A stretch of DNA of 64,000 nucleotides, taken from contig DAIMCS010000001.1 of assembly GCA_036726225.1 (NCBI GenBank), forward strand, positions 69,776 through 133,775, written 5' to 3'. This document shows, in pieces, positions 20,867 through 49,849 of the stretch. Below the pieces are notes generated by a model. It saw only the letters and a program-made list of their open reading frames with translations. It had not been told where the DNA came from and made no database searches. The position numbers and the translations under genes were made by a program. Source of the DNA: Patescibacteria group bacterium (GTDB lineage: Bacteria > Patescibacteriota > Doudnabacteria > UBA920). How positions within the stretch are numbered: the first letter of the stretch is position 1; the number at the start of each line of letters is the position of its first letter.

Positions 20867-20870
20867 AATA

Positions 20871-20984
20871 AGGCAGCCACCTACTTTTGCACATACATGC
20901 GTATGACTATCATTGGCCCGTGCGCGTTTTACTTCTGAGTTCGGGATGGGATCAGGTAGAGCCGCGCTGGAAATGCCACCCTCG
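20871..20984 (-). rRNA. rrf: 5S ribosomal RNA (ends approximate)
   Basis: The reverse complement contains CCTGATCCCATCCCGAACTCAGAAGTAAAACGC and ...AGTAGGTGGCTGCC, matching the 5S loop C and helix I regions. Confidence 0.65.
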
Positions 20985-21107: not shown

Positions 21108-21453
21108 AATCTTGGATAAACCTTTATGGAATAAAATTCAACGAGGATGCACTTAGTTTATGGTCTTATTGCGTTTACTGAATTTTGCGTGGCTATAAAG
21201 AATGCTGCGGTTACAAGCAAAATTAACAAAATAACGCCATAAACCTTTAAGTGTTGTCTCATTGTATATACAAATTAACAAATGGCACAAATGAAACGAA
21301 TAACCACAAATCTGTTAATATCAGTTTCATTTGTGCATCCGTATATTTGTATCTTACACACTCACAAATTGCTAGTCAAAAAAGTTAAAATTTTCGATTG
21401 ATTAGTACTGCTCGGCTGAACACATTACTGTGCTTACACCTGCAGCCTATAAA

Positions 21454-21518
21454 TCAGTAAACAGTTCACAGTACGCAGTATACAGTATTGCTACTGTCTA
21501 CTGTTTCCTGTTTACTGA
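21454..21518 (-). repeat. Palindromic hairpin insertion TCAGTAAACAG...CTGTTTACTGA in the 23S 3' domain
   Basis: Absent from the E. coli-type sequence between conserved blocks. Confidence 0.5.
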
Positions 21519-21865
21519 GCACTGATGAAATACGCGGTAGTCTTCCGCGAATCTGTATTATGTATTGCTACATAAAACGAAACCTAGTTTTGTAGACGGC
21601 TTCACGCTTATATGCATTCAGCGCTTATCCAAACTAGACCTAGCTACCCCGCCATGCCCTTGACAGGACAACGGGTACACCAGAGGTCTATGCATCTCGG
21701 TCCTCTCGTACTAGAGATGCGACTACTCAAGTTTCGAACACCCACAGCAGATAAGGACCAAACTGTCTCACGACGTTTTGAACCCAGCTCGCGTACCACT
21801 TTAATATGCGAACAGCATAACCCTTGGGAGCTTCTTCACCCCCAGGATGTGATGAGCCGACATCG

Positions 21866-22362
21866 TACATAATCCATACTTTCGTATGGGGCAGACTATA
21901 TCTTGTTCTTGTCAGCGGTTTTAGGATCTGTCTCCATAACCTGCTTTTTTTTGACAAGACTCGGCGTATTATGGAAACAAGTATTAGGTATTATGTATAA
22001 CGTATTAAGCGCTGCAGACTGCAGTCGCCTTATACCTTATACTATATACTTTATACCTGCTTACATCTTCCCTTTCGGGTCAGTCGTTACGGGGTCAATG
22101 ACTAGTATTACGTATTATGTATAAAGTATTAGGTGCTGCAGTTGCAGTCACGTTATACCTTATACGTTATACTTTATACTACCCACGACTTCCCACGGTG
22201 TTGCCGGTTACTTCTTGTTTCCACTTAAGTAACTACGGGTTCACCGTTATAAGCCGAATTTATTTTCTTAGAATTATTATCACTCCGACTATTACGTCGG
22301 AGCAGACGGAACTAAGACACTTAGGTATGAGATTGCTCTCAAAGCACCCCGATTGATGGTTA
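21866..22362 (-). other. About 500-nt insertion in 23S domain V. It sits between ...GGTTTGGCACCT and CGATGTCGGCTC, next to the peptidyl-transferase centre. Its AT-rich interior contains two large palindromic hairpins built from GTATAA/GTATTA hexamers around GCTGCAG..CTGCAG loops.
   Basis: Conserved exon-like blocks were identified on both sides. The insert does not end in G, so it is not an obvious group I intron. Confidence 0.6.
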
Positions 22363-23103
22363 AGGTGCCAAACCCTCTCGTCGATGTGGACTCTTGGAGA
22401 GGATCAGCCTGTTATCCCTAGAGTAACTTTTATCCGTTGGGCTTTGCGTCTTCCACTCGAACGCATCGGATCACTAACTTCCACTTTCGTGCCTGCGCGG
22501 GTCGCCGCCCTTGCAGTCAAGCATGCTTATGCGTTTGCACTATCGGCATGATTTCCATCCATGCCTAGCATACCTTAATAAACGCCTCCGTTACCATTTA
22601 GGAGGCAACCGCCCCAGTTAAACTACCCACGAGCCACTGTCCCAAAGTAGGTTAGACTTTGGTTAGCAATTTCACTTCTACAGGGTGGTATTTCACCTGT
22701 TGCCTCCATTTCAGCTGGCGCCGAAACTTCAAAGGCTCCCACCTAGGCTAAACAATAAAAATAAAATTGCAATGACACGCTATAGTAAAGCTTCATAGGG
22801 TCTTTCCGTCTTGCTGCGGGTAGACGGCATCTTTACCGCCATTGTAAGTTCATCGGAATGTTCGTTAAGACAGTCCTCTACTCGTTATGCCATTCGTGCG
22901 GGTCGCAACTTACGCGACAAGGAATTTCGCTACCATAGGACAGTTATAGTTACTGCCGGCGTTCATCAGGGCTTGGCCAACCACCTTGCGGCGGTCGGTT
23001 TAACCTTCTGACACTGGCCAGGCATCAGCCCGTATACATCAGCTTAACGCTTTAGCACGGACCTAAGTTTTTGGTAAACAGTCGGGAGAGGTCTTTTGTT
23101 GCA

Positions 23104-23417
23104 GCCTAAGTCTTTACTTTTTGGAAGTGATGCTGTTGATAAACCCATTTTTCATATGTTAGAAAATGGATTAGTATATGAATAGCATCGCTGATCGTAA
23201 ATGAAAGAAAGGGAGGATCCAAGATGACGCCAACGGTATCAATTATGGTCGGAATAGCGCTGTGTCTATTCGCAATCACCGTTCCGGTGGTTCCTGTTCT
23301 GTGGGACACGCTCAAGGAACGCTAATGCGTTTGATGGCTGTCGAACGGGGTTGCTTCGCAATCCCGTTTTTTCTTTCTTTAAAATCTTTTTCACTTACAA
23401 AAAGTAAAGACTTAGGC
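23104..23417 (-). other. 314-nt insertion in the 23S helix-63 region, bounded by a perfect 20-bp inverted repeat GCCTAAGTCTTTACTTTTTG / CAAAAAGTAAAGACTTAGGC (IVS-like)
   Basis: The flanks match GGCAAAA...GG and GGCTGCAAC...GACGCCTG...GGAAGGTTAA of 23S. Confidence 0.6.
23224..23325 (+). CDS. Candidate 33-aa hydrophobic peptide MTPTVSIMVGIALCLFAITVPVVPVLWDTLKER. It is encoded antisense to the 23S rRNA, inside the IR-bounded insertion.
   Basis: GGGAGG SD 7 nt upstream of the ATG. Intrinsic terminator AACGGGGTTGC-TTCG-CAATCCCGTT followed by TTTTTT at 23344-23372. Confidence 0.3.
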   Translation: MTPTVSIMVGIALCLFAITVPVVPVLWDTLKER

Positions 23418-24087
23418 AAGGTATATACCTAAGGTACACCTGCTTTTTTGCCGAGTTCCTTAACGAACATTGCTCCGGACGCCTTGGGATTCTCTCCCCA
23501 TCCACCTGTGTCGGTTTACGGTACGGACACCATTAAACATGATTACGACGGTTTTCTTGGCACCTTGATTCACACTAATTCCCGTTGCCAGGTTTCTTTA
23601 TACTCTCGAGCTTGAAACCGGCTGCAAGTCCTTTTGGGACCGACAGACAGTAATGAGTTGCGGATTTGCCAACAACTCACCCTACAAGTACAACAACGCA
23701 AATAGTCAGATTACGCTAGTGTTATCATGATGCGTCACGCCTTAAATAATTTAATGGTGGTTATGGAATATCAACCATATTTTCCATCGGGTGAATCCCT
23801 TGGGACCCACTCTTAGGATCGACTAACCCAGGGACGACGATCGTTGCCCTGGAAACCTTGGATATTCGGCGAAGAGGATTCTCACCTCTATATATATTAC
23901 TTATTCCAACATTCTTACTTGTACACTGTCCAGCGCCGCTTACGCATACGCCTTCAGCCTGTGTACAACACTCCTCTACCACCAATGCAATGTTACTCGC
24001 ATTGATCCACGTCTTCGGCACCTAGCTTAGCCCCTATATATTGTCGGCGCAGGATCGCTTGACCAGTGAGCTGTTACGCTTTCTTTA

Positions 24088-24124
<37 letters not shown>

Positions 24125-24517
24125 GGGCAATCCCACATCCTTTGCACTATAGCTAGGATTTGGGGGCCTTAGACGGTGGTGTGGATTCTTCTCCATTTGT
24201 CTCGTGAAGCTTAGACCTCACGGACTGACTGCCGAGATCTTGACCAAAAGAATTCGGAGTTTGGTTGGAGCCTACCGATTGCTCAGCAGGTTTCCATTCA
24301 GTGCTCTACCTCTTTTGGGAACTCTCGACGCTAGCCCTAAAGCTATTTCGAGGAGAACCAGCTATCACCCGGTTCGATTGGAATTTCTCCCCTACGCACA
24401 GCTCATCCCCTATTTTTGCAGCAATAGTGGGTTCGGACCTCCCGTTGCTTTTACACAACGTTCATCCTGGCCATGCGTAGCTCACGCGGGTTTCGGGTCT
24501 AACTCATGCGACATATA

Positions 24518-24603
24518 AGTAGGTATAAAGTATTACGTATTAAGTATTAGGTATCAGGGCAAATGCCGAGATACGTTATACCTTATACTTCATACTTTAT
24601 ACA
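24518..24603 (-). repeat. AT-rich palindromic hairpin insertion in 23S (GTATAAAGTATTACGTATTAAGTATTAGG...ATACCTTATACTTCATACTTTATAC), the same family as 25212-25296 and the pair inside 21866-22362
   Basis: Seen directly. Confidence 0.55.
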
Positions 24604-24721
24604 AACTTATTACGGACTATTCATCCTCGCTTTCACTACACTTTCGTCTTTGTTAAGACTTAAGTAAGCCGCATAAGATTAACTCGTTGGATCATTCTTC
24701 AATAGGCACGCGGTTAGCCAT

Positions 24722-24816
24722 CACAGATACACTGATTTACACTGATTTCGCAGATATATATAGATTTAATCTATATATAAATCTGTGTTATCTGCGTCCA
24801 TCAGAGTATCTGTGAT
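24722..24816 (-). repeat. Palindromic hairpin insertion in 23S (CACAGATACACTGATTT...AGATATATATAGATTTAATCTATATATAAATCT...TATCTGTG)
   Basis: Seen directly. Confidence 0.5.
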
Positions 24817-24878
24817 CGGGCCTTCCACTCCTTGTAAGTATACGGTTTCAGATACTATTTCATTCCCCTTCCGGGGTG

Positions 24879-24919
<41 letters not shown>

Positions 24920-25211
24920 ATATGAGTATTTAGCCTTAGATCTTAGTCGACCTGATTTCCGACCAGATTTCTCGTGTCTGGTCGTACTCAAGAAAAAGTT
25001 AGGAAATTGCATGGTTTTTCGCGATACGGGACTATCACCCTCTTTGGTCCGCCGTTCCAGGCGTGTTCTGCTAAACAGCAAACATAATTCCCTGCCCCTT
25101 TACAGCGGGGCAATAACTTCCACTTATAACACCTAATTAGCAACGACTGTAATCTTTAATTCTCCGCCTTGCGGCTTTGAAAACACTAATTAAGTTTGGG
25201 CTAATAAAGCA

Positions 25212-25296
25212 AGTATAAAGTATTATGTATAACGTATTACGCATCCGGGCAAAAAGCCAAGATACTTTATACCTTATACTCTATACTTTATACAAA
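25212..25296 (-). repeat. AT-rich palindromic hairpin insertion near the 23S 5' domain (GTATAAAGTATTATGTATAACGTATTACG...TTTATACCTTATACTCTATACTTTATAC)
   Basis: Seen directly. Near-identical arms to 24518-24603. Confidence 0.55.
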
Positions 25297-25591
25297 CTCT
25301 ATATACTTCCGCTTTCGCTCGCCACTACTAACGGAATCTCGTTTCGTATTGCTACGAAATTGATTTATTTTCCACGTGCTACTGAGATGTTTCACTTCGC
25401 ACGGTTCCCGCATACTATACCCCACGGCATAGCAGCACATACTCTTCCAGTATGTGGGTTTCCCCATTCGGACATCCACGGATCAAAGCTCTGTTGCCAG
25501 CTCCCCGAGGCTTTTCGTAGGCTCAAACGTCCTTCATCGGCTCATATTACCTAGGCATCCACCGTATACCCTTAACTTATTTTAACTTTTA

Positions 25592-25671
25592 CAAACTGAT
25601 TAACACTTACGAGAACGGATTAACACGGAGTCCGTGTCCTTCCGTTGCCCTCATCTGTGTTCATCTGTTTG
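25592..25671 (-). repeat. 80-nt direct repeat, copy 1, in the 23S leader. It contains the perfect palindrome ACACGGACTCCGTGT. Copy 2 lies at 25892-25971 (78/80 identical).
   Basis: Seen directly. Confidence 0.7.
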
Positions 25672-25891
25672 CTTATATTTGACTAGCAATTTGTGACTAC
25701 CATCCCTCGGCAAGAGTGATGATAAACAAAAAGCTTAAGGATACAATGTTCTAGAATTATCTAGATTAAACTTACATGTCTAAACAACTACTGTTGTTTA
25801 GATCTACCCATAAGTCATCCACGTCTGATTCTAATACGTGGTGACTTATTTTATTTAGTTTTTAAAGATCTGTCCGATTCAAAACCGTAAC

Positions 25892-25971
25892 CAAACTGAT
25901 TAACACTGACGAGAACGGATTAACACGGAGTCCGTGTCCTTCCGTTGCCCTCATCTGTGTTCGTCTGTTTG
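25892..25971 (-). repeat. 80-nt direct repeat, copy 2, in the rRNA leader
   Basis: Seen directly. Confidence 0.7.
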
Positions 25972-26084
25972 TTTTCTTACCACCATATAGCTACTGCTCA
26001 AACCGTTCTGCTAGCCTGATACCCAAAGTAATATTGGTACGCTTAGAGATCCGTGAGCAGTAAATATATAGTGATAAATTTTGA

Positions 26085-26100: not shown

Positions 26101-26255
26101 CCCGACGCTGCGGTCGGGGTGCCCCGAAGGGGCACAAAAAAACCGCATTTAGCGGCAGTAAAGGCACAATTTAAATTGGCCGTTTACATAAACCGCTTTT
26201 TGGTGACTAAATTTAATGTTTTTAACATAGGCGCTGCTACCTTTGTTTAATGTAA

Positions 26256-26289
26256 AGATATTCTAAATTATTATGAGGTGGATGTCAAG
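26256..26289 (-). promoter_or_regulatory. Strong promoter TTGACA-N17-TAGAAT on the minus strand with an upstream AT-rich UP-like element; candidate rRNA operon promoter
   Basis: Reverse complement of 26256-26289. About 680 nt upstream of the 23S 5' end. Confidence 0.5.
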
Positions 26290-26444
26290 AGAAACCCTAT
26301 AAAATTTGCCTATTAAATATGCCTTATATAAGAGCTTTTTTATATCCATAAAACACTGTTCCACAGAATAACCACAAGGGTAAGGATGTAGGAATTCGGA
26401 ATTAGGAGATAGACAGGTCACTTATTAATTCCTAATTCCGTCCG

Positions 26445-26473
26445 TTGACTCCCTCCCCGCCTTTTGCTAACCT
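26445..26473 (+). promoter_or_regulatory. STAS cassette promoter P1: TTGACT-N17-TAACCT (extended -10 TGCTAACCT)
   Basis: Same architecture as P2-P4. Preceded by the 11-bp inverted repeat CGGAATTAGGA...TCCTAATTCCG. Confidence 0.5.
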
Positions 26474-26510
26474 CCAAACATTCGAGTTAAAAAACAAAGG
26501 GGGAGTTCAA

Positions 26511-26828
26511 ATGAGCTTTGAGGTATCATTTCCTTTTCTGGTGAAAGTCAGGGGGAGCATTACAACTGAGATAGAAAAAACAAATTTTCTTTCCACACTT
26601 CACAGCCGTGTGCCAAAAGACAGCAATAGGGTGTTTATTGACCTGGGAGAAGACGGTTTAAACGTGACGCCGAAATTAGCTGAAGCGTTGTGGCTCGCAA
26701 AGGAAGTTACTCTTAGGGAACACACGATTGTCTTTCTGGATCGACGAGGTGAAATAAAGAAAACGCTCAATTGCTATAAGGGCATTGGAGACAGCTTTTC
26801 CTACATATCCGATACAAATGAAATATAG
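26511..26828 (+). CDS. STAS-domain-like small protein (105 aa), paralog 1 of 4
   Basis: Start placed at the ATG at 26511, which has a GGGGGAG SD. The ORF-track start at 26445 overlaps the promoter. RVFIDLGE...LNVTPKLAEAL is STAS-like. Confidence 0.5.
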   Translation: MSFEVSFPFLVKVRGSITTEIEKTNFLSTLHSRVPKDSNRVFIDLGEDGLNVTPKLAEALWLAKEVTLREHTIVFLDRRGEIKKTLNCYKGIGDSFSYISDTNEI

Positions 26829-26845
26829 CAACCCTTGTCGCATCC

Positions 26846-26890
26846 AAAACGGCGGGCGGACACGAAATTCGTGTTCCGACCCGCCGTTTT
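26846..26890 (+). terminator. Cassette terminator T1: AAAACGGCGGGCGG-[ACACGAA A TTCGTGT]-TCCGACCCGCCG followed by TTTTTT
   Basis: Conserved outer arms and a covarying inner stem, as in T2 and T3. Confidence 0.65.
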
Positions 26891-26896
26891 TTAATG

Positions 26897-26925
26897 TTGA
26901 CCTCAAGGCAGGCTTTTGCTAACCT
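26897..26925 (+). promoter_or_regulatory. STAS cassette promoter P2: TTGACC-N17-TAACCT
   Basis: Identical to P4 over about 45 nt. Confidence 0.5.
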
Positions 26926-26969
26926 CCAAAGTATCCCGCGCCGCAAAGCACGGTAAAACTGGAGGACCA

Positions 26970-27422
26970 ATGATCTTTAAATTGTCAAAAAAAGAAACTA
27001 ATGGGGTTGTTGTACTGACACTATCCGGTCGCTTAACCAGCCCAGAACCAGATGATGTAATCAATCCGCTACTGGTATTGCGTAATGCTATTGGCGAAGA
27101 AAAAGCCAGAGGTAATAGAAAAATCCTCCTTAATTTGAAGGATGCCACTTATATCAGCAGTGCAGGATTGGGGCAACTGATTACGGCGATAGGAACCATT
27201 ACCCAAATGGTTTGTAGTTCCTGCGGTGTGCCTGTTTCTAGGGACAAAAACGAGAATTTCGAAAAGTGCGCCAACTGCGGCAGTTCGGAACAAAAAAATT
27301 GGGGGCAGGTTAGACTTTCAAATTTACGCCTTCAACCCGAGGACCTAATCAATTTCACCAAACTCAACACTGTCCTCGATATTCACCCCGACGAAGAGGA
27401 CGCACTCGTCAAGTTTACATAG
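26970..27422 (+). CDS. Anti-sigma factor antagonist (SpoIIAA/RsbV-like STAS) with a C-terminal CxxC...CxxC zinc ribbon (150 aa from the ATG at 26970)
   Basis: LSGRL and ISSAGLGQL (the conserved phosphorylatable-serine motif DSSGLG). GGAGGA SD. Confidence 0.6.
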   Translation: MIFKLSKKETNGVVVLTLSGRLTSPEPDDVINPLLVLRNAIGEEKARGNRKILLNLKDATYISSAGLGQLITAIGTITQMVCSSCGVPVSRDKNENFEKCANCGSSEQKNWGQVRLSNLRLQPEDLINFTKLNTVLDIHPDEEDALVKFT

Positions 27423-27446
27423 GCCGAGCGATGACAATCACGAACG

Positions 27447-27497
27447 CAAAACGGCGGGCGGTGTGCCTCTGGCACATCCGACCCGCTTTTGTTTTTG
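27447..27497 (+). terminator. Cassette terminator T2: AAAACGGCGGGCGG-[TGTGCC TCT GGCACA]-TCCGACCCGC followed by a T-run
   Basis: Seen directly. Confidence 0.65.
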
Positions 27498-27499
27498 TA

Positions 27500-27528
27500 T
27501 TGACCTAACGGTAGCGTTTTGCTAACTT
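27500..27528 (+). promoter_or_regulatory. STAS cassette promoter P3: TTGACC-N17-TAACTT
   Basis: Seen directly. Confidence 0.5.
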
Positions 27529-27552
27529 TTTATTAGTGATTAGGAGGTTCTT

Positions 27553-27897
27553 ATGAAGATTGATGAAAAGGTTCTCCGCGTTGTGACTGTTGTTGGAGAG
27601 GAAGAACGAACAGGCCTTGATGAATTGACAAAAGTACTTCGGGAAAATCCAGAAGGCAATACCGTAGTGCTTTTCGACGAGCTGCGCATGAGTCTTCAAT
27701 TCTTCAATGAGCTATGCGACCGCGTAAAAAGCTTCTCCAAGGAGGTCGATGAACATCAGGGCTTTCTTGCAATGGTCGGAGACCGTCTCATATTGAGCGA
27801 CAGAATGAGCGGTAGCGGCATTACAATCTTTCCCACTCTCGAACAGGCTGTGAGCGCCGTTGAGTCCAGCATTTTTCAGCAAGATGACGGTGATTAG
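27553..27897 (+). CDS. STAS-domain-like small protein (114 aa), paralog 3
   Basis: AGGAGG SD. TVVLFDELRMS...GITIFPTLEQAVSAV is STAS-like. Confidence 0.5.
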   Translation: MKIDEKVLRVVTVVGEEERTGLDELTKVLRENPEGNTVVLFDELRMSLQFFNELCDRVKSFSKEVDEHQGFLAMVGDRLILSDRMSGSGITIFPTLEQAVSAVESSIFQQDDGD

Positions 27898-27916
27898 TAA
27901 CCCTTTATCACGAACG

Positions 27917-27966
27917 CAAAACGGCGGGCGGTCTCCCTACAGGAGATCCGACCCGCCGTTTTTTAA
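27917..27966 (+). terminator. Cassette terminator T3: AAAACGGCGGGCGG-[TCTCC CTACA GGAGA]-TCCGACCCGCCG followed by TTTTTT
   Basis: Seen directly. Confidence 0.65.
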
Positions 27967-27968
27967 TG

Positions 27969-27997
27969 TTGACCTCAAGGCAGGCTTTTGCTAACCT
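27969..27997 (+). promoter_or_regulatory. STAS cassette promoter P4: TTGACC-N17-TAACCT
   Basis: Seen directly. Confidence 0.5.
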
Positions 27998-28034
27998 CCT
28001 ATTACCTGTGCGGAGCACGGGTAAAGAGGGGGAA

Positions 28035-28391
28035 ATGATAAAAATCGGGTATATAGAAATCACGAAAGAGTGGATTAACGGTATTATAGTAATTTCTCAT
28101 TCAGGAAGCTTTACCGGCCACAATCTGAACCTGCTTCTGGCTGAATGCCTGCAAGATACAAAGAAGGTCGTGCTGAACCTGAAAGAAGCGGTCATTTATA
28201 AGTGCGGCTTTTCGGAAATAGCTCGCTTCCACAAAGAAAACGCCAAGGACGTTCGGCTGATTGTTGTGGTTGGCCAAGCAGATAAGCTAGCAAAGAAAGG
28301 TAAGGAAATGCTGTTAAGCCAAGACATAACTGTCGATAGCGTCGACGCCGCGATTGAAATCTTAAACCGTGAAGAAGCCCAAGCCTCGTAA
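28035..28391 (+). CDS. STAS-domain-like small protein (119 aa from the ATG at 28035), paralog 4. It lacks the phospho-serine: YKCGFSEIA sits in place of SSAGLG.
   Basis: GAGGGGGAA SD. NGIIVISHSGSFT...VVLNLKEAV aligns with paralog 2. Confidence 0.5.
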   Translation: MIKIGYIEITKEWINGIIVISHSGSFTGHNLNLLLAECLQDTKKVVLNLKEAVIYKCGFSEIARFHKENAKDVRLIVVVGQADKLAKKGKEMLLSQDITVDSVDAAIEILNREEAQAS

Positions 28392-28430
28392 GGGACGGTG
28401 TGCGCAAAAGCACACCGCCCCTTTGTTTTT
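28392..28430. terminator. Bidirectional terminator GGGACGGTGTGC-GCAAAA-GCACACCGCCCC followed by a T-run
   Basis: Seen directly. It lies between convergent genes. Confidence 0.6.
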
Positions 28431-28446
28431 ATTTACTTCAACTGTA

Positions 28447-34879: not shown

Positions 34880-35734
34880 TTAGTCGCTTGGCACTTCTAC
34901 TTTTACTTTCCTGCCAACCTGTCCATTTTCCGTCCTAATAATTACACCTGTCTTGCCTACATAGGGCAGGCCTTTGCCAATGTTGCCGGTGTTGTCGAAG
35001 GTAGATACCGTGTAAAAAATTGTACCCGGGCTGCTGGGGTTGGTAATAATTAATTCTTGCTGCAAATTCGGATTCAAGGTCCAGCTTGCACAATTCATAT
35101 TGGAATTTGGAATAAGCGCAATAGAACCGTTACTACCAAGGTTTGGGACACTAGCGTCAACACCGCATGAAGTCGGGTCTGAAACCGGGGCAATCCAATA
35201 ACCATCGCCGACATTTTCAACGCTGCAAGGCGCACTGGGGTAAGGTCCGTTGGGATTTGGGTCCCACTCACATAAATAAGCAAACAAATAGGAACCGGGC
35301 GGGGCGGAAGAGAATTTCAGCACTATTTTGCCAAAGTCACAGCCGCTATCTTGGGCTCCTGTCGGGCAAAATTCGTATATCTTTTTAGTATTACTAAAGT
35401 GCGAACCGGTTTGGATATAGTCTGAAAAACTGGCATTGGTGGTGGTGCTTAGCTCCGGGGCGCCTTTTAACGATACATTATTGTTAAAGGAACTTATATA
35501 GCTGTCGGGGTCTTCTAGATTCCTGATATAGTTAAAAAATGCCTGCTCCCCAACTCCGGTAGCACCATAAAGAGACCCTTCTGTTTTTAGCAGGTCGCTT
35601 GAGCTTTTTACCTCAATGAAAATAATGGTAGTCAGGCTGAAAGAAATGGCCAAAACTGCCGACAACAATAAAATGCCTAAAATTAAAGTTACGCCTGCCT
35701 GACTGTTTTGATTTTTATTCTTTTGGAAGGTCAT
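34880..35734 (-). CDS. Pilus-associated protein with a single N-terminal TM helix (PilX/minor-pilin-like). The start is probably the ATG at 35734.
   Basis: QAGVTLILGILLLSAVLAISFSL. Position at the distal end of the pilin gene run. Confidence 0.35.
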   Translation of the reverse strand: MTFQKNKNQNSQAGVTLILGILLLSAVLAISFSLTTIIFIEVKSSSDLLKTEGSLYGATGVGEQAFFNYIRNLEDPDSYISSFNNNVSLKGAPELSTTTNASFSDYIQTGSHFSNTKKIYEFCPTGAQDSGCDFGKIVLKFSSAPPGSYLFAYLCEWDPNPNGPYPSAPCSVENVGDGYWIAPVSDPTSCGVDASVPNLGSNGSIALIPNSNMNCASWTLNPNLQQELIITNPSSPGTIFYTVSTFDNTGNIGKGLPYVGKTGVIIRTENGQVGRKVKVEVPSD

Positions 35735-36422
35735 ATTTTGTCGTTGAAACTGAAGTTTGATAATAAATAGGCAATTGCTCGCCTGTGGGAAGCCTAACAA
35801 TAAACTTTGCAACAATTGCCACCATGGGCTGGACTTCGACTAAACCACCGTCATCTATATAAGGGTCTTTAAGCGGCCTAATTAAAAACATTAACTGGTC
35901 TACCACTATGTTAGATGGGTTTAAAATTTGGGGCGAACTTACTCCCGTCTTTTCCAAAACTAAAGTAGAACCGGTGGGTGAGGCAAAAATAGTGGGCACA
36001 CTGCCCGGCGGGGAGTTTACATATACACCGTTGCTGTCGCCGTAATAAAAACATTCCTGTATGTTTTCCGAATTCAAAATGCCTAATTTATTGTCCCTTG
36101 AAGTATAGGTGGGATCGGCGTCTGCCGCCCCTCCCGGAGTGCCGGGAGGCACACACGCGGAAGTGACACTGTTATTTACAGCCCCAATATAAGTATCTCC
36201 ATTTGCAACATAATAGTCAACCTGGCCGTTGCGGATTTCCTTAACTAAAAATTCCATAAAATTACGCACCCCCTGCGAGGCTTGCCTTAAAACTTCTGTG
36301 CGTCTGTTAATTTTTAAAACGTAATTAAAAAGCGAAAGTAAAGATCCGGAAATAATTACAAAAAGTACCGAAGACACTAAAATTTCCATTAAAGTAAACC
36401 CTAATTGTTGTTTTGTCTTCAT
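35715..36422 (-). CDS. Type IV minor pilin (prepilin-type N-terminal cleavage/methylation domain)
   Basis: GFTLMEILVSSVLFVII. Confidence 0.6.
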   Translation of the reverse strand: MKTKQQLGFTLMEILVSSVLFVIISGSLLSLFNYVLKINRRTEVLRQASQGVRNFMEFLVKEIRNGQVDYYVANGDTYIGAVNNSVTSACVPPGTPGGAADADPTYTSRDNKLGILNSENIQECFYYGDSNGVYVNSPPGSVPTIFASPTGSTLVLEKTGVSSPQILNPSNIVVDQLMFLIRPLKDPYIDDGGLVEVQPMVAIVAKFIVRLPTGEQLPIYYQTSVSTTKYDLPKE

Positions 36423-36443
36423 GGTAAGTTTAAGCAGCAGGGG

Positions 36444-37205
36444 CTAATAATTTTTCCAATTAGTTAAATAAGTGTCCAGTTCCATTCTGCAGCTTGGGCT
36501 GGCATTGCTAAAATCAGCTGCCCTGGGACATTTTTTGTCTACCCACCAAACTTGCGACCGGACATACAACAGTGTCATATTGGGATCTTGGTCGTAAGGC
36601 GCATCAGTTTGCTTAGTAATAACAATTTTCCGGCAATAATCTGCCATGCCAGCGGCATTGGCACAGTTAATGTTACCGGGCGTGTAATAATACCCCCTGC
36701 CTGCGGAATTAGTGGAATTAAATGTTAATCCGTACCGGTTATTATTAATTTGTTTTGATAAAATCCAAAAATTTGTTTGGGTGTAATCGAACCCCAGGGC
36801 ATAATTGGTAGTCAGCGCGCCGCCCGAACAATTGACATTCGGACTATTGGTGGGGTCTATACAAAAAGGCAAATCTGGGTCCGGCGGATCGTCTGTCCCA
36901 AGCCATCTTTTATAACACTTGCCGTCCATGCTGTTTGGCGCAGTAAGATCTTCATAGTTGTAGCAATCTTCGTCAATGTCCATATGCTTTAGCCAATTAG
37001 TGTCTCGCATATTCCTAACTGCCTCTATCCCCTCTCTGGCTAAACCGGTGGCAACAATTTGCTTTACAATGCTGGTGGAAGAATTTAAAGCATACACCGC
37101 CAAACCCACCGAAGCGCTGACGCCCGTTACTAAAATAAAGAGCGCTGCCATGGTTTCTATTAAAGTCTGCCCTTTTTGGCCAAAAAATTTACGCATAAGA
37201 ACCAA
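36444..37205 (-). CDS. Type IV minor pilin / pseudopilin-like
   Basis: GQTLIETMAALFILV. Confidence 0.55.
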   Translation of the reverse strand: MVLMRKFFGQKGQTLIETMAALFILVTGVSASVGLAVYALNSSTSIVKQIVATGLAREGIEAVRNMRDTNWLKHMDIDEDCYNYEDLTAPNSMDGKCYKRWLGTDDPPDPDLPFCIDPTNSPNVNCSGGALTTNYALGFDYTQTNFWILSKQINNNRYGLTFNSTNSAGRGYYYTPGNINCANAAGMADYCRKIVITKQTDAPYDQDPNMTLLYVRSQVWWVDKKCPRAADFSNASPSCRMELDTYLTNWKNY

Positions 37206-37208
37206 AAC

Positions 37209-37940
37209 TTAATAACTCTGTTGGCAAGCCCAAGTTGCCGCCTTTGGACAAACCGAACCGGTTACGGCATTGACCATTACTGCAGGAATAGCTGCATTGG
37301 CAGTATGTTTTATAAAAATTCCCAACTTTGAGTCTGTGCTGGCGCTGCAAATTTCAGGATTGTAAGGCGGGAAGCTTAAACAGCCTACACTGTTCTGAAA
37401 ATTAATAATTTTTGCATAGTAATCGTCAGTCGGCACCAAAGTTGCCGGATTAGCCGAATCTGCGACACTACAACCGTCATTGAATATAGTTTTTCCAAAA
37501 GGTGCCGCAAAAGCAAGCAAAACGCAGCCGTTTAAAATGTTTTGAGTAATGGGATTTAATTCACGCACCACGGTAAGTGAATTTATGTTTATGTTGGGCG
37601 GGAAGTTTACTGTCTCAACATCCACTAATTTAGGCGCCGTGCTCACATTGTAGATTGCCTGAATTTTATAGCTTCTGGTATTGCTTAAATTAAACTTTAT
37701 TAAATAAAACTGCGCCAATTCTCCTGAAGGCAAAGCCCTTGAAGAAAGCGTATAGCTTTGGACTTTACGAATATCACTAACAAGTTTATTTACTGCCAAA
37801 CGAGTATCACGGGCAGCCCTGCCTGATGTTAAATTTATGGATACCGCAAGAGTCAAAAGCCCCATAATGGTAATAACTACCATTAATTCTATAAGGGTAA
37901 AGCCTTTTTGGGAATCGGCATAAAATATTTGGTTTGGCAT
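37209..37940 (-). CDS. Type IV pilin-like protein
   Basis: KGFTLIELMVVITIMGLL. Confidence 0.6.
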   Translation of the reverse strand: MPNQIFYADSQKGFTLIELMVVITIMGLLTLAVSINLTSGRAARDTRLAVNKLVSDIRKVQSYTLSSRALPSGELAQFYLIKFNLSNTRSYKIQAIYNVSTAPKLVDVETVNFPPNININSLTVVRELNPITQNILNGCVLLAFAAPFGKTIFNDGCSVADSANPATLVPTDDYYAKIINFQNSVGCLSFPPYNPEICSASTDSKLGIFIKHTANAAIPAVMVNAVTGSVCPKAATWACQQSY

Positions 37941-37994
37941 TTTTCAGGTTTTATTTCAAAAGAAAGATCTCTCAACTTCTACAAAATTATACCA

Positions 37995-38786
37995 TTAAAT
38001 ACCCAAAAGTGCCAAATACCAGGCTATTAACCTGTCTCCATAAAAAAAGGCAATCAGCGCACCAACAGTTAAGAAAGTCCCAAATGGTACGCGGCTTTTT
38101 AAAGTTTTAGAGGCCAGTGCCAGCAAAAATGCGGACACCACTCCCCCCAATAAAATAGCAAGCATAAAACCGGCTAAGACTTTAGGCCACCCTAAGACCA
38201 GACCTAAAAATATGGCAAATTTGACGTCACCAAAACCCAAAGCCCTGCCCCGGGATATATACCATGTAAAAAAGAAAAGCAAAGTTAAAACCAAAGCGGC
38301 AAACAGGCCGGAAATAAAGCGGCTCTCAAAGCCTAAGGCAGGCTTAGTCAATAAATCTAAAACCAAATTTAGCAGGCCTGCCCCAATACAGCCGACCAGG
38401 ACGACTTTGTCTAAAATTAAAAAGTGTTCTAAATCTATTACAAAAACTGCAAGCAAAACACTAATTACAAGCCAGGCATTTATAAGCTGTAAAAATAACA
38501 CTAAAGAGTCGGGCTTAAAAAAACTCCAGGCAAACACAAACAGCAGCCCGGTCAGCAGTTCTATAAAAGCGTACCGCCACGATATTTTCGCTTTGCAGTA
38601 ACGGCACCGGCCTTTTAAAAAAAGAAAACTAAACACCGGCACTAAGTCTAAGGCCGCTAAATTATGTCTGCAAGAAAAACAGTGTGACCGGCCCGTTAGG
38701 GGCTGCTCCATAGGCAGTCTTAAAATTACCACGTTTAAAAAGCTGCCAATTAAAGTACCAAAAATAAAAACTAAAATTGCTTCCAT
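37995..38786 (-). CDS. pilD: Prepilin peptidase (A24 family)
   Basis: N-terminal CxxC...CxxC zinc domain (CFSCRH...CRYCKAK). Polytopic with FGDVKF. Confidence 0.75.
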   Translation of the reverse strand: MEAILVFIFGTLIGSFLNVVILRLPMEQPLTGRSHCFSCRHNLAALDLVPVFSFLFLKGRCRYCKAKISWRYAFIELLTGLLFVFAWSFFKPDSLVLFLQLINAWLVISVLLAVFVIDLEHFLILDKVVLVGCIGAGLLNLVLDLLTKPALGFESRFISGLFAALVLTLLFFFTWYISRGRALGFGDVKFAIFLGLVLGWPKVLAGFMLAILLGGVVSAFLLALASKTLKSRVPFGTFLTVGALIAFFYGDRLIAWYLALLGI

Positions 38787-38788
38787 AA

Positions 38789-40786
38789 TTATTCAACCCT
38801 GCCTAAAGAAAGGCCGACACCAAAAGGCACTTGGCTTATATCCGGCAGGCTCTTGGCTAATTTTATAAGGTTAATAAGGGCAATTTTGTCCCCGTCGTAT
38901 TTTGCCGCCTCCCATAAGGTTTTAATTAGCATTTCGCGGTTGCCTTCAATCTGGTAGAGTTTTGCCAAAAACACTATTGCCTCGACATTTTGAGGATCCA
39001 TTTCCAGCCCTTTTGTCACAGCCGCCTTGGCATTCGGCAAATCTGCAAACGCGAAATAGAATTGTGAAAGTATAAAATAATTACTCCCCGAATGCGGGTC
39101 CAGGCTCATTGCGGTTTTTACATATTCTAAAATCACCTCTTTATATTTTGGGTCCAAAGTTTCATAAAACCTGAGATAATAAATATTTGCCAATGTTATG
39201 TAACTATAGCCTCTGGCTTTATGGAAGCGGGCAACGGCGCGGATATTTTTATTTATTTCCTCCTCCGGCAGCTTTGCACGGATGGAACTAGCTGCTATGT
39301 ATTGATAGTACAAATTATTAACCGGGTTTAAATAAACCGCCGCTTTTGCCAGCTTATTAGAACTAAAATAATCACGCCTGTTGTAAGCTTTTATTGAGGC
39401 AAAAAATAAATGCTCAGCCAGTAAAAAACTAACTGAGTAAACAAGCAATAAGGCAAAAACCGAAGCGCCTGCTATTTTATACACAGCAAGTTTGGGCACT
39501 TGATACGTGAAAGATTTTTCAACAAAACCGCTAAGCAAAAAAACTAAAGCTACATAGCAAGGGACGGCAACGGGCGTAAAAAAAGCCGCTACCATCCAAG
39601 CGCAAACACAGCCCAGCAAAGCAATATTTTGCCACGACCGGTCATTTTTTTCAGCAAAAACCTGTTTTAACGAGCCTAATAGCGGAAAAAAAACTAAAAA
39701 CAAGAATAAAAACAAGAACGGGATTCCCCCGCTAACCGCTAAATACAAAAACAAATTGTGGGGGTCATCAAAAAAACCGCTTTTAATTGAACTTAAATCC
39801 CTATTTTGCTCGAAAACTAATTCAAAGTTACCTAAACCATGCCCAAAGACTGGTTTTCTAAAAATGCTAATCCAGGTCATATCCCAGACCCCGAACCGGG
39901 TTTGGATGTTAGTTTCGTTTAAATTAATTTTGGCCGCAACAGAACCCGGCCTGGAAAAATTTAAAAATGCAAAAATAAGAATGAAAGCAACCCCTAAAAA
40001 AAGTGCGCACCAAAGGGCAAACCGGTTAAAAGCTTTCTTAATGACAAGAGTAAAAAACAGGCACGCCGACAAACCGGCAATTGCAGCCAGCACGCTGCCT
40101 CGGCTGGCAAATGCAACAACTGACCAAATTTGTAAAAAAACACTTAAGGCGTAAAAGACCTTTGACCAAAAATTGCCGGCTGTAAGCAAAAAATAAACGC
40201 CTAAAGGAACAAAAGTCGCCACAAACATACTGGAAAAATTCGGGTTGCCCAAAAAACTGGGTGAAGCCCTGGAAAAAAAATCAAAAGTTTGGCCCTGGTA
40301 ATAGCCTATGCCTAAACTTTGAAGCATACCCCACAGCGCGGTTAGGACTGCGCAAAAAAACAGCAATTTAATTAAGAGCCATAATTGGATTTTATCTAAA
40401 GCCGAGACGAGTAAAAATAAAATTGCCCATAGACTATAAAATAAAAAACCATTGGTAAAACGCGGGTAAAAGCCAAAAAAACTGAAATTTTTATCCTGGG
40501 CCAAAAGTGAGGAAACGAGCGCCCAGGCTAAAAATAGGCACAAACCTAAAAAAAATGTCTTGCTCATCCGCAAGACTAATGGTGAAGACTTCTGTATAAA
40601 ATATCTTTTTACAAACACCAAGCCCGCAACTGCGACTAAAAACATAAGCAGGCCGAACTTAATAATTTCGAAGCTTTCAAAATTATATACGTCAAAGGCG
40701 AGCGGAATTAAAAAAACAATTAACAGCAGGGAACCAAAAAAATAATCGTTACGATAGGGTAAGTGGAGTTTGGGGGGAAATAGCAT
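38789..40786 (-). CDS. Large membrane protein with a Wzy_C/O-antigen-ligase-like domain and C-terminal TPR repeats; candidate pilin O-glycosyltransferase (PglL/PilO-like)
   Basis: Multi-TM N-terminal region with a long loop. C-terminal TPR-like helical repeats. Position inside the pilus locus. Confidence 0.4.
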   Translation of the reverse strand: MLFPPKLHLPYRNDYFFGSLLLIVFLIPLAFDVYNFESFEIIKFGLLMFLVAVAGLVFVKRYFIQKSSPLVLRMSKTFFLGLCLFLAWALVSSLLAQDKNFSFFGFYPRFTNGFLFYSLWAILFLLVSALDKIQLWLLIKLLFFCAVLTALWGMLQSLGIGYYQGQTFDFFSRASPSFLGNPNFSSMFVATFVPLGVYFLLTAGNFWSKVFYALSVFLQIWSVVAFASRGSVLAAIAGLSACLFFTLVIKKAFNRFALWCALFLGVAFILIFAFLNFSRPGSVAAKINLNETNIQTRFGVWDMTWISIFRKPVFGHGLGNFELVFEQNRDLSSIKSGFFDDPHNLFLYLAVSGGIPFLFLFLFLVFFPLLGSLKQVFAEKNDRSWQNIALLGCVCAWMVAAFFTPVAVPCYVALVFLLSGFVEKSFTYQVPKLAVYKIAGASVFALLLVYSVSFLLAEHLFFASIKAYNRRDYFSSNKLAKAAVYLNPVNNLYYQYIAASSIRAKLPEEEINKNIRAVARFHKARGYSYITLANIYYLRFYETLDPKYKEVILEYVKTAMSLDPHSGSNYFILSQFYFAFADLPNAKAAVTKGLEMDPQNVEAIVFLAKLYQIEGNREMLIKTLWEAAKYDGDKIALINLIKLAKSLPDISQVPFGVGLSLGRVE

Positions 40787-40805
40787 GATTAAATTATAGC
40801 CCTTT

Positions 40806-41198
40806 TCACTTATGCTCGCTAATTTTATTCCAACCTTTCTTAAAATTTCCTAAATTCGTTGCCAGACAAAAATCCAGTTCGTAATTTTTTGCAGATACTC
40901 TTTTATAATCAAAATTTGCCAGACAGTTCGAGTTTTTTGAAACATTGTCCGGCAGCTTGGAAAAATAAGTCAGCAAAACATTGGTGTCGGAAAATTCTTC
41001 TACGGAAGGGAAGCGGTCCTGGTCCTTAAAAAAAATATCCAGGCCCTTTTGGAGCTCTATAACTGTGACATTCACATTTTTGGCTTTAGCCACTAAAACT
41101 CCCTTTTGCAATCCCAAGAAAAGGCTAATTAAGAAAAGAACAGTCACCGTAATGACTGCCAAATAAGTTGCATTAAATTTTGGAAGAGACAATGGCAT
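40806..41198 (-). CDS. Small membrane-anchored hypothetical protein in the pilus locus
   Basis: N-terminal TM helix YLAVITVTVLFLISLFLG. Confidence 0.35.
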   Translation of the reverse strand: MPLSLPKFNATYLAVITVTVLFLISLFLGLQKGVLVAKAKNVNVTVIELQKGLDIFFKDQDRFPSVEEFSDTNVLLTYFSKLPDNVSKNSNCLANFDYKRVSAKNYELDFCLATNLGNFKKGWNKISEHK

Positions 41199-41257
41199 AG
41201 GTTACAAAATAGGCGGAAATTGGGCGCCCCATTTTAGGAGCGCCCAATTGAAGTGTA

Positions 41258-41719
41258 CTATTGAATTCCGGCCTGTGTCAAAGTGTGGGTTCCTTGTGAG
41301 TAACCACCGGTAACCGCACCCAGACAGAAAGTTACTGCATAAGTGGCAACTAAGTTACCGCTTCTGTTATCCAACCAGTAATAGTTGTTAGCGCCTTGTG
41401 TTGCTGTGCTGGCGCATGTACCATCAGCTGGGGTTGGAGCATTTGGAATTAAACCAATGTAGTTTGGAACAATGTTTGGGGATCCGATACCTGCTGTTGG
41501 CAAAGCAGCTGCTGCTGCTGTTGGATAACCGTTAATGTCGTTGAAGTAAAGCTCCAATGCTGAAGCTAACTGTCTAACGTCAGCGAGTCTTTTGGCGTCC
41601 CTGGACTTGGCTCGAGCCGAGTTTAGGGCAAGTAAAACCACAGAAGCTAAAAGACCGATTATGGCAATAACCACCAACAATTCAATTAATGTAAAACCTT
41701 TTTCGTTTTTATTTCTCAA
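41258..41719 (-). CDS. pilA: Type IVa major pilin. TTG start preceded by a GGAGGTG SD.
   Basis: KGFTLIELLVVIAIIGLLASVVLLALNSARAKSRDAKRLADVRQL. C-terminal Cys pair. Confidence 0.8.
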   Translation of the reverse strand: MRNKNEKGFTLIELLVVIAIIGLLASVVLLALNSARAKSRDAKRLADVRQLASALELYFNDINGYPTAAAAALPTAGIGSPNIVPNYIGLIPNAPTPADGTCASTATQGANNYYWLDNRSGNLVATYAVTFCLGAVTGGYSQGTHTLTQAGIQ

Positions 41720-41775
41720 TGTTTTTCACCTCCAATCAAGTGAGGAATTGAAATAAATTCAATTTAATTAGTATT

Positions 41776-41804
41776 ATTATAACATTTTGTAAACTAGCTA
41801 ACAA
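41776..41804 (-). promoter_or_regulatory. Consensus promoter TTGTTA-N17-TATAAT for pilA
   Basis: Reverse complement of 41776-41804, about 75 nt upstream of the start. Confidence 0.55.
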
Positions 41805-41880
41805 GGGTACTTATACACATATGTAAGAAAAAACAACAATTTGCGATTAAGAAATAGCGTATGAGCGTTAATGAAGTCGC

Positions 41881-43086
41881 CTATCCTGCCGTACTGGCCA
41901 TGTTGTAAATGGGCAGCAAAATACCGGCCACTAAACCGCCTACAGCCACACCTAAAATTATCATAATAATCGGTTCCAACAAGGTGGTTAATGTTGCGAC
42001 CTTGGTGTCAACTTCTGCTTCATAAAACTTGCCCAACTTTGCCATAATTGCATCTATCTGGGCGGTTTGTTCGCCGACCTTAACCATTTGCGTAACAATG
42101 GAGGGAAACTCAGGGTGACCGGAAAGGCTTTCGCTAATACTTTTGCCGCCTTTTATTTGGACAACTGCATCTAAAATAATATCTCTGTAAACTACATTGT
42201 TAATAATTTCAGCTACAATTTGCAAAGCTTTAATTATTGGGATTCCGCCCATAGCCAGCGTGGCTAAATTGGAAGAAAAACGGGCGAGATAAATTTTTTG
42301 GAAAATATCGCCAATAATAGGGGCGTGGATTTTTAAAGTATCCCAATTATGCCTGCCTGCCGGAGTAGTGATAAAAAATCTCAAGCCTAAAATACCTGCG
42401 GCCATAAGCAATAAAACGACCCACCAAAACTTGTTAAAAAATTTAGTAAAAGCAATAAGCGCCAAAGAGATGGCCGGCAAACTGCCGCCTTGCTCTTCTA
42501 AAACAGAAGTTAGGTTGGGCAAAACGAATTTAAACATAAGCAAACCAATAACCACCAATGCTCCGAGCACGAACACCGGGTAAGTCATGGCGCTTTTCAC
42601 TTTACTTTGCAGCTGATAATTTTTTTCCAGTTGGTCCGCCAAATAGCCCAAAGATTTGTCGAGTGAGCCTGAAACTTCGCCCGACATAACCATGCTCACA
42701 TATACGTTGCCGAACACTTCCTCGTGTTTGGTTAAAGCATTGGACAGGCTGTCGCCGTTTTCCACAGAAGCAATTAAATCACCAATTATTTGGAGCAGGT
42801 ATTTGCTGCCAATTTGTTCGCGCAAAATCCTTAAAGCCTGGATAATTGGCACTCCTGCGGAAATAAGCGTTGCCAGCTGCCTGGAAAATAGAACTAAATC
42901 TTTGCTTTTAACAGACTTGCCGAATGGGTTAAATTTTTCGAATATGCTGGCTTCCTGGACATTTAAAGCGACAATGGCTAAATTATTTTGCGCAAGCAAA
43001 GCCTCGGCTTTATTTTGGTCAGCCGCCAAAACCACACCACTTTGGATGTTGCCGTCTTTGTCCCTGGCTTTGTATGCGAATTTCAT
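41881..43086 (-). CDS. pilC: Type IV pilus inner-membrane platform protein (GspF family)
   Basis: 401 aa with two T2SSF repeats. Confidence 0.8.
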   Translation of the reverse strand: MKFAYKARDKDGNIQSGVVLAADQNKAEALLAQNNLAIVALNVQEASIFEKFNPFGKSVKSKDLVLFSRQLATLISAGVPIIQALRILREQIGSKYLLQIIGDLIASVENGDSLSNALTKHEEVFGNVYVSMVMSGEVSGSLDKSLGYLADQLEKNYQLQSKVKSAMTYPVFVLGALVVIGLLMFKFVLPNLTSVLEEQGGSLPAISLALIAFTKFFNKFWWVVLLLMAAGILGLRFFITTPAGRHNWDTLKIHAPIIGDIFQKIYLARFSSNLATLAMGGIPIIKALQIVAEIINNVVYRDIILDAVVQIKGGKSISESLSGHPEFPSIVTQMVKVGEQTAQIDAIMAKLGKFYEAEVDTKVATLTTLLEPIIMIILGVAVGGLVAGILLPIYNMASTAG

Positions 43087-43173
43087 ATGGAAAGTTAGTA
43101 AGTAAATAAGCCTATAAGTACTTAAGGGAGTCCTTACTTATTACCTTACTCACTTATGTACTTATTCACTTGC

Positions 43174-44244: not shown

Positions 44245-44316
44245 AAAAGTTAATAGGTTAATAAGTAGATGAGTTAATAAGCTGGTTAACTAATTAACTT
44301 ACACACTTATTTACTG

Positions 44317-44721: not shown

Positions 44722-44778
44722 AAATTAGTTACAAGTGACAAGTTGCAAGTCTTTTCACTTTCAACTTGTCACTTGTCA

Positions 44779-46536: not shown

Positions 46537-46542
46537 GGGGGT

Positions 46543-46875: not shown

Positions 46876-46884
46876 ACCCTTTTT

Positions 46885-47499: not shown

Positions 47500-47511
47500 A
47501 GGGCAGCTGGA

Positions 47512-48084: not shown

Positions 48085-48103
48085 TTTATTTTACAAAAGA
48101 ACT

Positions 48104-49382: not shown

Positions 49383-49387
49383 CACAA

Positions 49388-49803: not shown

Positions 49804-49849
49804 AAATCCTCCGCAAAAACGAGGAGCGCAGTTCCGACAAGTCTGACGA

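Follow-up and report, generated by a model that had tools for sequence, protein, structure and literature searches.

We analysed a stretch of 64 kb (the window) from a Patescibacteria group bacterium of the Doudnabacteria (contig DAIMCS010000001.1, positions 69,776–133,775). On its forward strand lies a tandem array of four small genes, p1–p4, each set between a promoter-like sequence and a predicted hairpin terminator. The original prediction had taken the four for STAS (anti-sigma-antagonist-like) paralogs. The coordinates it gave for the four open reading frames (ORFs) are exact, and its observation of an array is confirmed and far beyond chance. The array consists of the following features.

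26391–26443, forward strand: AT-rich hairpin just upstream of P1 (−19.7 kcal/mol, z −3.9)
26445–26473, forward strand: promoter-like sequence P1, with TTGACT, a 17-nt spacer ending in TTTTGC (extended −10, TGn) and TAACCT
26511–26828, forward strand: p1, 105 aa, orphan with a low-confidence STAS-like predicted fold
26846–26890, forward strand: predicted terminator T1, with outer arms AAAACGGCGGGCGG and TCCGACCCGCCGTTTT and inner stem ACACGA/TCGTGT, then a T-run (−32.4 kcal/mol, z −6.9)
26897–26925, forward strand: promoter-like sequence P2, identical to P4
26970–27422, forward strand: p2, 150 aa, STAS-domain-only protein (Pfam STAS, 29.2 bits)
27207–27299, forward strand: CxxC-N14-CxxC zinc ribbon in the STAS domain of p2 (about residues 80–110; C82, C85, C100 and C103)
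27448–27492, forward strand: predicted terminator T2, with the 5′ outer arm of T1, inner stem TGTGCC/GGCACA and a shortened 3′ arm (−29.0 kcal/mol, z −4.3)
27500–27528, forward strand: promoter-like sequence P3, TTGACC ... TTTTGC TAACTT
27553–27897, forward strand: p3, 114 aa, orphan
27918–27962, forward strand: predicted terminator T3, with the outer arms of T1 and inner stem TCTCC/GGAGA (−32.3 kcal/mol, z −6.5)
27969–27997, forward strand: promoter-like sequence P4, identical to P2
28002–28024, forward strand: 10-bp hairpin at the start of the p4 leader, the predicted mRNA 5′ end (−13.8 kcal/mol, z −5.1)
28035–28391, forward strand: p4, 118 aa, strongly diverged paralog of p2 with K56/C57 at the phospho-serine position
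28390–28423, forward strand: predicted terminator T4, after p4, from a terminator scan (−23.7 kcal/mol, z −5.4)

The promoter-like sequences share one layout: a −35 box TTGAC(C/T), a 17-nt spacer ending in a T-run and TGC (extended −10), and a −10 box TAAC(C/T)T. The pattern TTGAC-N12-TTTTGCTAAC occurs four times in the 64 kb, always in the array, against 0.46 copies expected, and none of 100 shuffles reaches four. Both this block and the 5′ terminator arm AAACGGCGGGCGG are absent from the 10 kb past each window edge. TTGAC and TTTTGCTAAC are unchanged in all six promoters available (four in the window and two in a relative described below), with variable spacers between them. The claim that each gene has its own conserved TTGAC-N17-TAAC promoter is borne out at the sequence level by these four array-only copies, and two promoters thought to be identical over about 45 nt, P2 and P4, are actually identical over 53 nt. 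All four ORFs have a strong Shine-Dalgarno sequence of the GGAGG or GGGGG type 6–9 nt before the ATG. Longer ORF calls from upstream TTG or ATG codons, such as the 141-aa p4 of some pipelines, overlap the promoter boxes, and we infer that they are less likely than the ATG starts that follow the Shine-Dalgarno sequences. The hairpin that opens the p4 leader could serve in transcript stabilisation or regulation; the p2 leader, homologous to that of p4, has only a weak, non-significant version of it. Similar strings are found in unrelated metagenome contigs, namely TTGACT-N11-TTTTGCTAACTT right after a tRNA 3′ end (L134 8118–8161, L137 1092–1135 and L145 27–70) and TTGACC-N11-TTTTGCTAACCT after hairpins (L138 and L143), so that a T-run followed by TGCTAAC may recur as an extended −10 element among certain uncultivated lineages.

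The 5′ outer arm AAACGGCGGGCGG is present in exactly three copies in the window, all in the array, and the array-type hairpin terminators reach −27 to −32 kcal/mol (z −4.3 to −6.9 for T1–T3). T1–T3 align gaplessly, with a variable inner segment of 15 nt in each, and 95% of cells pair in this alignment versus 42–50% when the partners are slid. All six inner pairs are changed on both sides, the 11 outer pairs are invariant, and one of 500 shuffles equals this pattern; two bulged bases of the 3′ arm are also kept across T1–T3. Identical outer arms enclosing compensatory inner stems, as originally described for these three hairpins, are thus seen, except that the 3′ arm of T2 is shorter than had been given (CCGACCCGC followed by TTTTG). 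Likewise, the terminators assigned to the first three genes are present, and p4 has one as well: T4, which resembles T2 inverted (inverted repeat of 16 nt, 88% complementary). The tips of T1, T2, T4 and the first terminator of the relative are alternating purine-pyrimidine runs (ACACG, TGTGC, GTGTGC and ACACACA).

The junctions between successive genes (J12, J23 and J34) are mutually 79–88% identical, whereas the ORFs are mutually unrelated apart from p2 and p4. J12 (26845–26927) and J34 (27917–27999) are 88% identical over 83 nt, and their mismatches fall at 10 of 15 positions in the hairpin tip versus 0 of 68 in the flanks. The tips look as though they had been replaced as blocks rather than mutated, and simple drift plus conversion leaves the restriction of mismatches to the tip unexplained.

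Other public contigs with array genes belong to the same strain (99.9–100% identity), with the single exception of one relative (L127/L128), recovered in two samples of the same series from soil. Its upstream spacer and window positions 26131–26376 are homologous (~68–73% identity), so that the relative represents the same locus. The units of the relative are, in order, ORF-X, p1′ (79% amino acid identity to p1) and p3′, and p2 is missing.

L127 485–805, forward strand: ORF-X, 106 aa, with an N-terminal hydrophobic (transmembrane) segment and two CxxC pairs (zinc ribbon)

ORF-X has no family match in Pfam, PADLOC, PHROGs or NCBIfam. Its promoter, TTGTAT-17-TATAAT, is not of the array type, and downstream of it stand a terminator and a promoter of the family type. 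The 3′ flank TTCCGTCCG of the hairpin at 26391–26443 matches the 3′ arm of the first terminator of the relative (L127 809–858), and for this reason the hairpin may be left over from an upstream unit since lost. The p1′–p3′ junction of the relative starts out identical to J12, which it follows past the p1 stop codon and the hairpin tip as far as TCCGACCCGC, and from this 10-mer onward it matches J23. The p2 unit therefore amounts to an indel of 602 bp with terminator direct repeats at its borders and the breakpoint inside the conserved 3′ arm of the terminator. In the junction alignment, the 5′ untranslated region goes with the downstream gene and the hairpin tip with the upstream gene. Moreover, synonymous divergence between the two lineages is 0.276 for p1 versus 0.045 for p3 (66 available codons), a six-fold difference (Fisher p = 0.002), and neighbouring units therefore have different histories. 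The P3 spacer is identical to that of the relative at 7 of 12 positions, next to the nearly identical p3. The comparison of synteny, suggested as a check when the array was first described, thus yields one relative with a different unit set that includes the unrelated ORF-X, and the array is not defined by STAS content. Searches of metagenomes with the junction pattern returned the same strain (L133) and the one relative (L140, same contig as L127), and the remaining 15 matching loci are unrelated promoter-like sites. Among the matches listed for the 15-base promoter pattern in genome contigs, there are only single chance hits in unrelated taxa.

Among the four proteins, p2 is the one with a clear family assignment. 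It scores 29.2 bits against Pfam STAS (PF01740), above the gathering cut-off of 22.6, and the match consists of two stretches split by zinc-ribbon Pfam matches at residues 76–112. Without residues 80–109, p2 can be aligned over its full length with canonical 121-aa STAS proteins (38% identity). Since its removal restores a collinear STAS alignment, the ribbon is an insertion after helix α2, internal to the STAS domain (~80–110) rather than C-terminal as previously described. In canonical STAS antagonists, the partner kinase phosphorylates the serine of the (D/S)-S-x-G-L-G loop (PMC8256260). In a local alignment, S64 in the ISSAGLG loop of p2 corresponds to the DSAGLG loop of TM1442 (PDB). Consistent with the earlier statement that p2 alone retains the phospho-serine motif, S64 is the only phosphorylatable Ser/Thr in the loop before helix α2: p4 has K56/C57, and p1 and p3 cannot be aligned there. 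The nearest canonical STAS relatives of p2 are stand-alone genes with no adjoining kinase. Most plausibly, p2 is a partner-switching-type STAS module, with its kinase and phosphatase, if any, encoded elsewhere.

The relationship of p4 to p2 emerges from a Smith-Waterman comparison (z 7.0), in which none of 2000 shuffles reaches the score. Against a STAS profile, hhalign gives an E-value of 0.004, on the KILLNL strand. We also used a local STAS hidden Markov model (HMM), which includes SpoIIAA and RsbV sequences and was scored against 1000 shuffles; two of these equal the score of p4. In an exhaustive HMMER pass over 1.84 billion (1.84e9) representatives, p4 found only itself. The Smith-Waterman, hhalign and HMM comparisons point to p4 as a genuine but very distant, non-phosphorylatable homolog of p2 with no Pfam STAS match.

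A search of 5.8 billion clusters with p1 found the protein itself and one relative, 79% identical, and because the ratio of non-synonymous to synonymous substitution (dN/dS) between the two is 0.28, p1 is a real gene under purifying selection. Its unbiased, low-confidence model comes closest to RsbV, SpoIIAA and RsbR, MinC-N excepted, so p1 is possibly STAS-like. The protein-cluster search with p3 retrieved p3 only. Its model is poor (predicted local distance difference test score 56) and matches generic α/β folds only, non-specifically, although the strand and helix order, β-α-β-α-β, is compatible with the STAS fold. No STAS signature or fold was found in p3 by sequence, profile or fold search. 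The p3 C-terminus DRMSGSGITIFPTLEQAV, which by eye resembled a STAS C-terminal signature, was dropped as a candidate when 593 of 1000 shuffles reached its HMM score. Neither p1 nor p3 shows similarity to the other, to p2, to p4 or to STAS profiles. Furthermore, p1, p3 and p4 have no match to Pfam STAS, in agreement with NCBIfam, and none in single-sequence PDB searches; together with ORF-X, they returned nothing meaningful from PADLOC, PHROGs and NCBIfam. Pfam STAS thus matches p2 only, which is the outcome named beforehand as speaking against four STAS proteins. What stands of the four paralogs is p2 and, as a distant homolog, p4; p1 has a low-confidence model in its favour, and p3 drops out.

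Partner genes were sought in ~84 kb of a metagenome contig of at least 496 kb, in whose numbering the window spans about 69,844–133,843; the search covered the window, where ~50 ORFs were scanned with Pfam, and the 10 kb past each edge, for which precomputed annotation was used. No RsbW/SpoIIAB-type kinase (HATPase_c_2), PP2C phosphatase or group-3 sigma factor is found there. The sole HATPase_c belongs to a MASE1-PAS-HisKA sensor kinase 33 kb from the array, and the sole sigma factors are RpoD, ~4 kb before the window, and an extracytoplasmic function (ECF) sigma factor just past its end. The absence of a visible partner kinase or sigma factor, as originally noted, is correct for the window; it is not exceptional, because the nearest canonical relatives of p2 also stand alone. 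The two adjoining monocistronic genes for zf-HC2 proteins (anti-sigma-type zinc finger; 483–866 and 1016–1336, forward strand), which had been brought into connection with the array, have promoters and terminators unrelated to those of the array, and we rejected the link, there being no regulatory sequence in common. No sigma factor gene is directly adjacent to either of them. The gene at 483 is preceded by an extended −10 promoter of its own, TTTACA-17-TGC-TAGAAT, and lies downstream of a terminator with a perfect 17-bp hairpin (323–360). Elsewhere, on the reverse strand, genes for an ECF sigma factor, a DUF5667 protein, a MASE1-PAS-PAS-HisKA-HATPase_c sensor kinase and a single-domain response regulator form a cluster at 60738–63522 and ~63546–64966, the latter part running past the window end (L164 8557–12785), and a GAF-PAS-GGDEF-EAL protein is encoded ~9 kb before the window start (L163 1–289). 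This signalling repertoire is fairly rich for an otherwise reduced-looking genome.

The neighbours of the array are rRNA, glycosyltransferase and ligase genes: a divergent 23S–5S rRNA operon borders it on one side and convergent membrane glycosyltransferase genes on the other.

21381–25587, reverse strand: 23S rRNA (rRNA model match)
26260–26288, reverse strand: divergent sigma-70-type promoter TTGACA-17-TAGAAT, not of the array type

The promoter at 26260–26288 presumably drives the 23S–5S operon. The 23S match covers 4207 nt against a model of 2925 positions, implying ~1.3 kb of insertions; there is no ORF of at least 100 aa on the rRNA strand and no Rfam intron family at threshold. The 23S gene and the 5S gene (20868–20983, reverse strand) have no adjoining 16S. 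The tRNA-Ile(GAT) and tRNA-Ala(TGC) genes, whose usual place is the rRNA spacer, are isolated at 49310–49925 (forward strand), 24 kb off the 23S–5S pair. Such unlinked rRNA genes with insertions are reminiscent of the candidate phyla radiation. The presumed rRNA leader contains, directly before the 23S 5′ end, an 83-nt direct repeat (25592–25674 and 25892–25974; 96% identical, spacing 300 nt). A type IV pilus/pseudopilin cluster occupies 35715–49126 (reverse strand) and comprises several N_methyl prepilins, an A24 prepilin peptidase, T2SSF, two T2SSE ATPases, PilM and PilO, with a Wzy_C O-antigen-ligase-like gene inside it. As for a phage, defence or viral origin, the array genes have no match in PHROGs, among defence systems or in viral contigs, and scans of viral sequences with the terminator and with p2 gave no matches.

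The reading that we favour, with a probability of roughly 0.55, is that autonomous, insulated expression cassettes are arrayed at this locus, next to the 23S–5S operon of an uncultivated bacterium from soil, and that their units are swapped at repeated junctions. Each unit would comprise a sigma-70-type promoter (TTGACC, T-rich extended −10 TGC, TAACYT), a Shine-Dalgarno sequence, a small ORF for a cytoplasmic protein and a long intrinsic terminator. The conserved, repeated entity would be the junction, running from the terminator 3′ arm through the T-run and the −35 box to the T-rich extended −10, whereas the variable parts would be the interchangeable ORFs, each with the hairpin tip that goes with it. 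By providing homology, the junction repeats may allow units to be gained, lost and exchanged between close lineages through recombination, the 3′ outer arm of the terminator being one putative crossover point. The units would be co-regulated by their common promoter but transcribed separately. Their contents are, a little more probably than the opposite, heterogeneous: p2 is a phosphorylatable STAS protein, p4 its diverged paralog, p1 possibly STAS-like and p3 an orphan. Within this scheme, p2 might act as a partner-switching-type binding module, with a kinase or phosphatase elsewhere in the genome, and p4 as a constitutive variant of p2.

Several points weigh against this reading. The function of the promoters and terminators has been deduced from sequence alone, and the protein roles of p2 and p4 are proposals. 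The array genes are compositionally native (GC and third-position GC, GC3, z ≤ 1.3), so that they bear no mark of horizontal acquisition; a foreign composition of the units, which we considered, is ruled out by the same values. In the collections searched there is one divergent relative only, and turnover is thus seen in a single comparison, whose outcome a one-off deletion between direct repeats would equally produce. Finally, if p1 and p3 were extremely diverged STAS proteins, the contents would no longer be heterogeneous, and the p1 model is compatible with that.

The alternative that survives best, although we consider it unlikely, retains the idea of four far-diverged paralogs of one tandemly duplicated STAS antagonist, which would form either a partner-switching hub with several inputs or a STAS family put to new use, with the kinase or anti-sigma factor elsewhere. 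Tandem duplication predicts an intergenic scaffold that is homologous between units, as is the case here, and p2 is indeed a bona fide STAS protein with a phospho-serine loop to which p4 is homologous. For the other two proteins, the resemblance of the p1 model to RsbV, SpoIIAA and RsbR (MinC-N aside) and the β-α-β-α-β order of the p3 model fit the idea, but both models are of low confidence and the fold searches with p3 are non-specific. Moreover, p1, p3 and p4 fail in Pfam and NCBIfam, p1 and p3 yield nothing against STAS profiles, and no RsbW/SpoIIAB kinase, PP2C phosphatase or group-3 sigma factor is encoded in the ~84 kb. The relative lacks p2, the sole phosphorylatable member, and has a non-STAS ORF in the same frame.

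Less likely again, and in our view distinctly improbable, is that the units arose by ordinary tandem duplication, gene conversion and selection for working promoters and terminators having kept the intergenic regions similar, with the relative reflecting a single accidental deletion, no ongoing exchange and no particular role of the junctions. The indel is exactly one 602-bp repeat unit bounded by direct repeats, and a one-unit indel between direct repeats is a classic outcome of unequal or RecA-type recombination. However, deletion does not suffice for the six-fold gap in synonymous divergence between p1 and p3 (Fisher p = 0.002), which requires exchange, nor does the explanation account for the extra unrelated ORF in the frame of the relative. 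The native composition, and the occurrence elsewhere in the genome of long perfect hairpin terminators and of TGn extended −10 promoters, agree with ordinary duplicates, but point mutation plus uniform gene conversion leaves the distribution of mismatches (10 of 15 in the tip, 0 of 68 in the flanks) unexplained, and spacers that differ strongly between the lineages (P3, 7 of 12 identical) lie beside a nearly identical p3.

A bolder proposal, on which we would place little weight, is that the repeated junction is a new cassette-shuffling device, in which the bulged hairpin, its outer stem fixed and its tip specific to the unit, would be both terminator and crossover site and the invariant promoter would at once express any ORF inserted between the junctions. 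Such a device would be a promoter-carrying counterpart of integron arrays, either integrase-independent or served by an unknown recombinase; if it exists, a soil bacterium with a small genome could use it to try out and swap small orphan proteins, including diverged STAS modules. An integron-like site-specific system proper, with the bulged hairpins as attC analogues read as folded single strands by a recombinase encoded elsewhere, is hardly credible: the hairpins do combine a conserved outer stem and a variable tip, with two conserved extrahelical bases on one of the arms, the cassette boundary maps within a hairpin 3′ arm, and the ORFs are small orphans whose content differs between close relatives, but none of the four hairpins has paired RYYYAAC (R″) and GTTRRRY (R′) core sites, and the ~50 window ORFs and the flanks encode neither an integrase nor another recombinase. 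Unlike a typical integron cassette, every unit comes with a promoter. The hairpins show the A-tract, GC stem and T-tract that are canonical for intrinsic terminators, and the element was not found elsewhere in metagenome, viral and flank scans. The likeness to attC is superficial.

If the locus is indeed an array of autonomous cassettes, a regulator-poor bacterium would be reshuffling individually expressed small proteins on one reusable scaffold, a natural example of insulated expression units like those designed by synthetic biologists. The contrast between invariant junctions and unrecognisably diverged ORFs would also offer a clean case for studying the origin or replacement of orphan genes in a conserved frame. 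The array also supplies a STAS protein into which a zinc ribbon is inserted and a partner that cannot be phosphorylated, neither of them with a linked kinase, an addition to the poorly understood non-canonical STAS-only proteins.

Compared with known systems, p2 is like the SpoIIAA/RsbV-type STAS-only proteins in its Pfam score, end-to-end alignment and loop serine, whereas p4 lacks the serine and p1 and p3 are not assignable to the family. The ~30-aa CxxC...CxxC insertion of p2 is found in none of its retrieved STAS-only relatives. In contrast to canonical antagonists, there is no kinase, phosphatase or sigma factor gene in the operon, and each gene is predicted to be monocistronic. Stressosome sets (RsbR paralogs plus RsbS) do encode several STAS proteins together, phosphorylatable and not, but their genes are co-transcribed with that for the RsbT kinase and the products carry sensor domains; the array is without a kinase, its genes appear insulated, and STAS membership is supported only for p2 and, through distant homology, for p4.

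Like integron arrays, the locus presents tandem, small, mostly orphan ORFs split by imperfect bulged hairpins; unlike them, it has no core sites and no integrase, its units carry promoters and its hairpins are of the terminator type. Another parallel is the phage moron, an independent transcription unit with its own promoter and terminator (PMC3594210). As in morons, a single small gene is apparently enclosed by its own sigma-70-type promoter and factor-independent terminator, and its presence or absence differs between otherwise collinear relatives; unlike morons, the units of the array are chromosomal, with native GC and no phage or prophage context. Morons usually have a deviant GC content. 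Furthermore, tandem arraying on one common junction sequence is not a described property of morons. Thus, STAS-only proteins and autonomous promoter-gene-terminator units are both of known kinds, and it is the cassette-like architecture joining them that is unusual.

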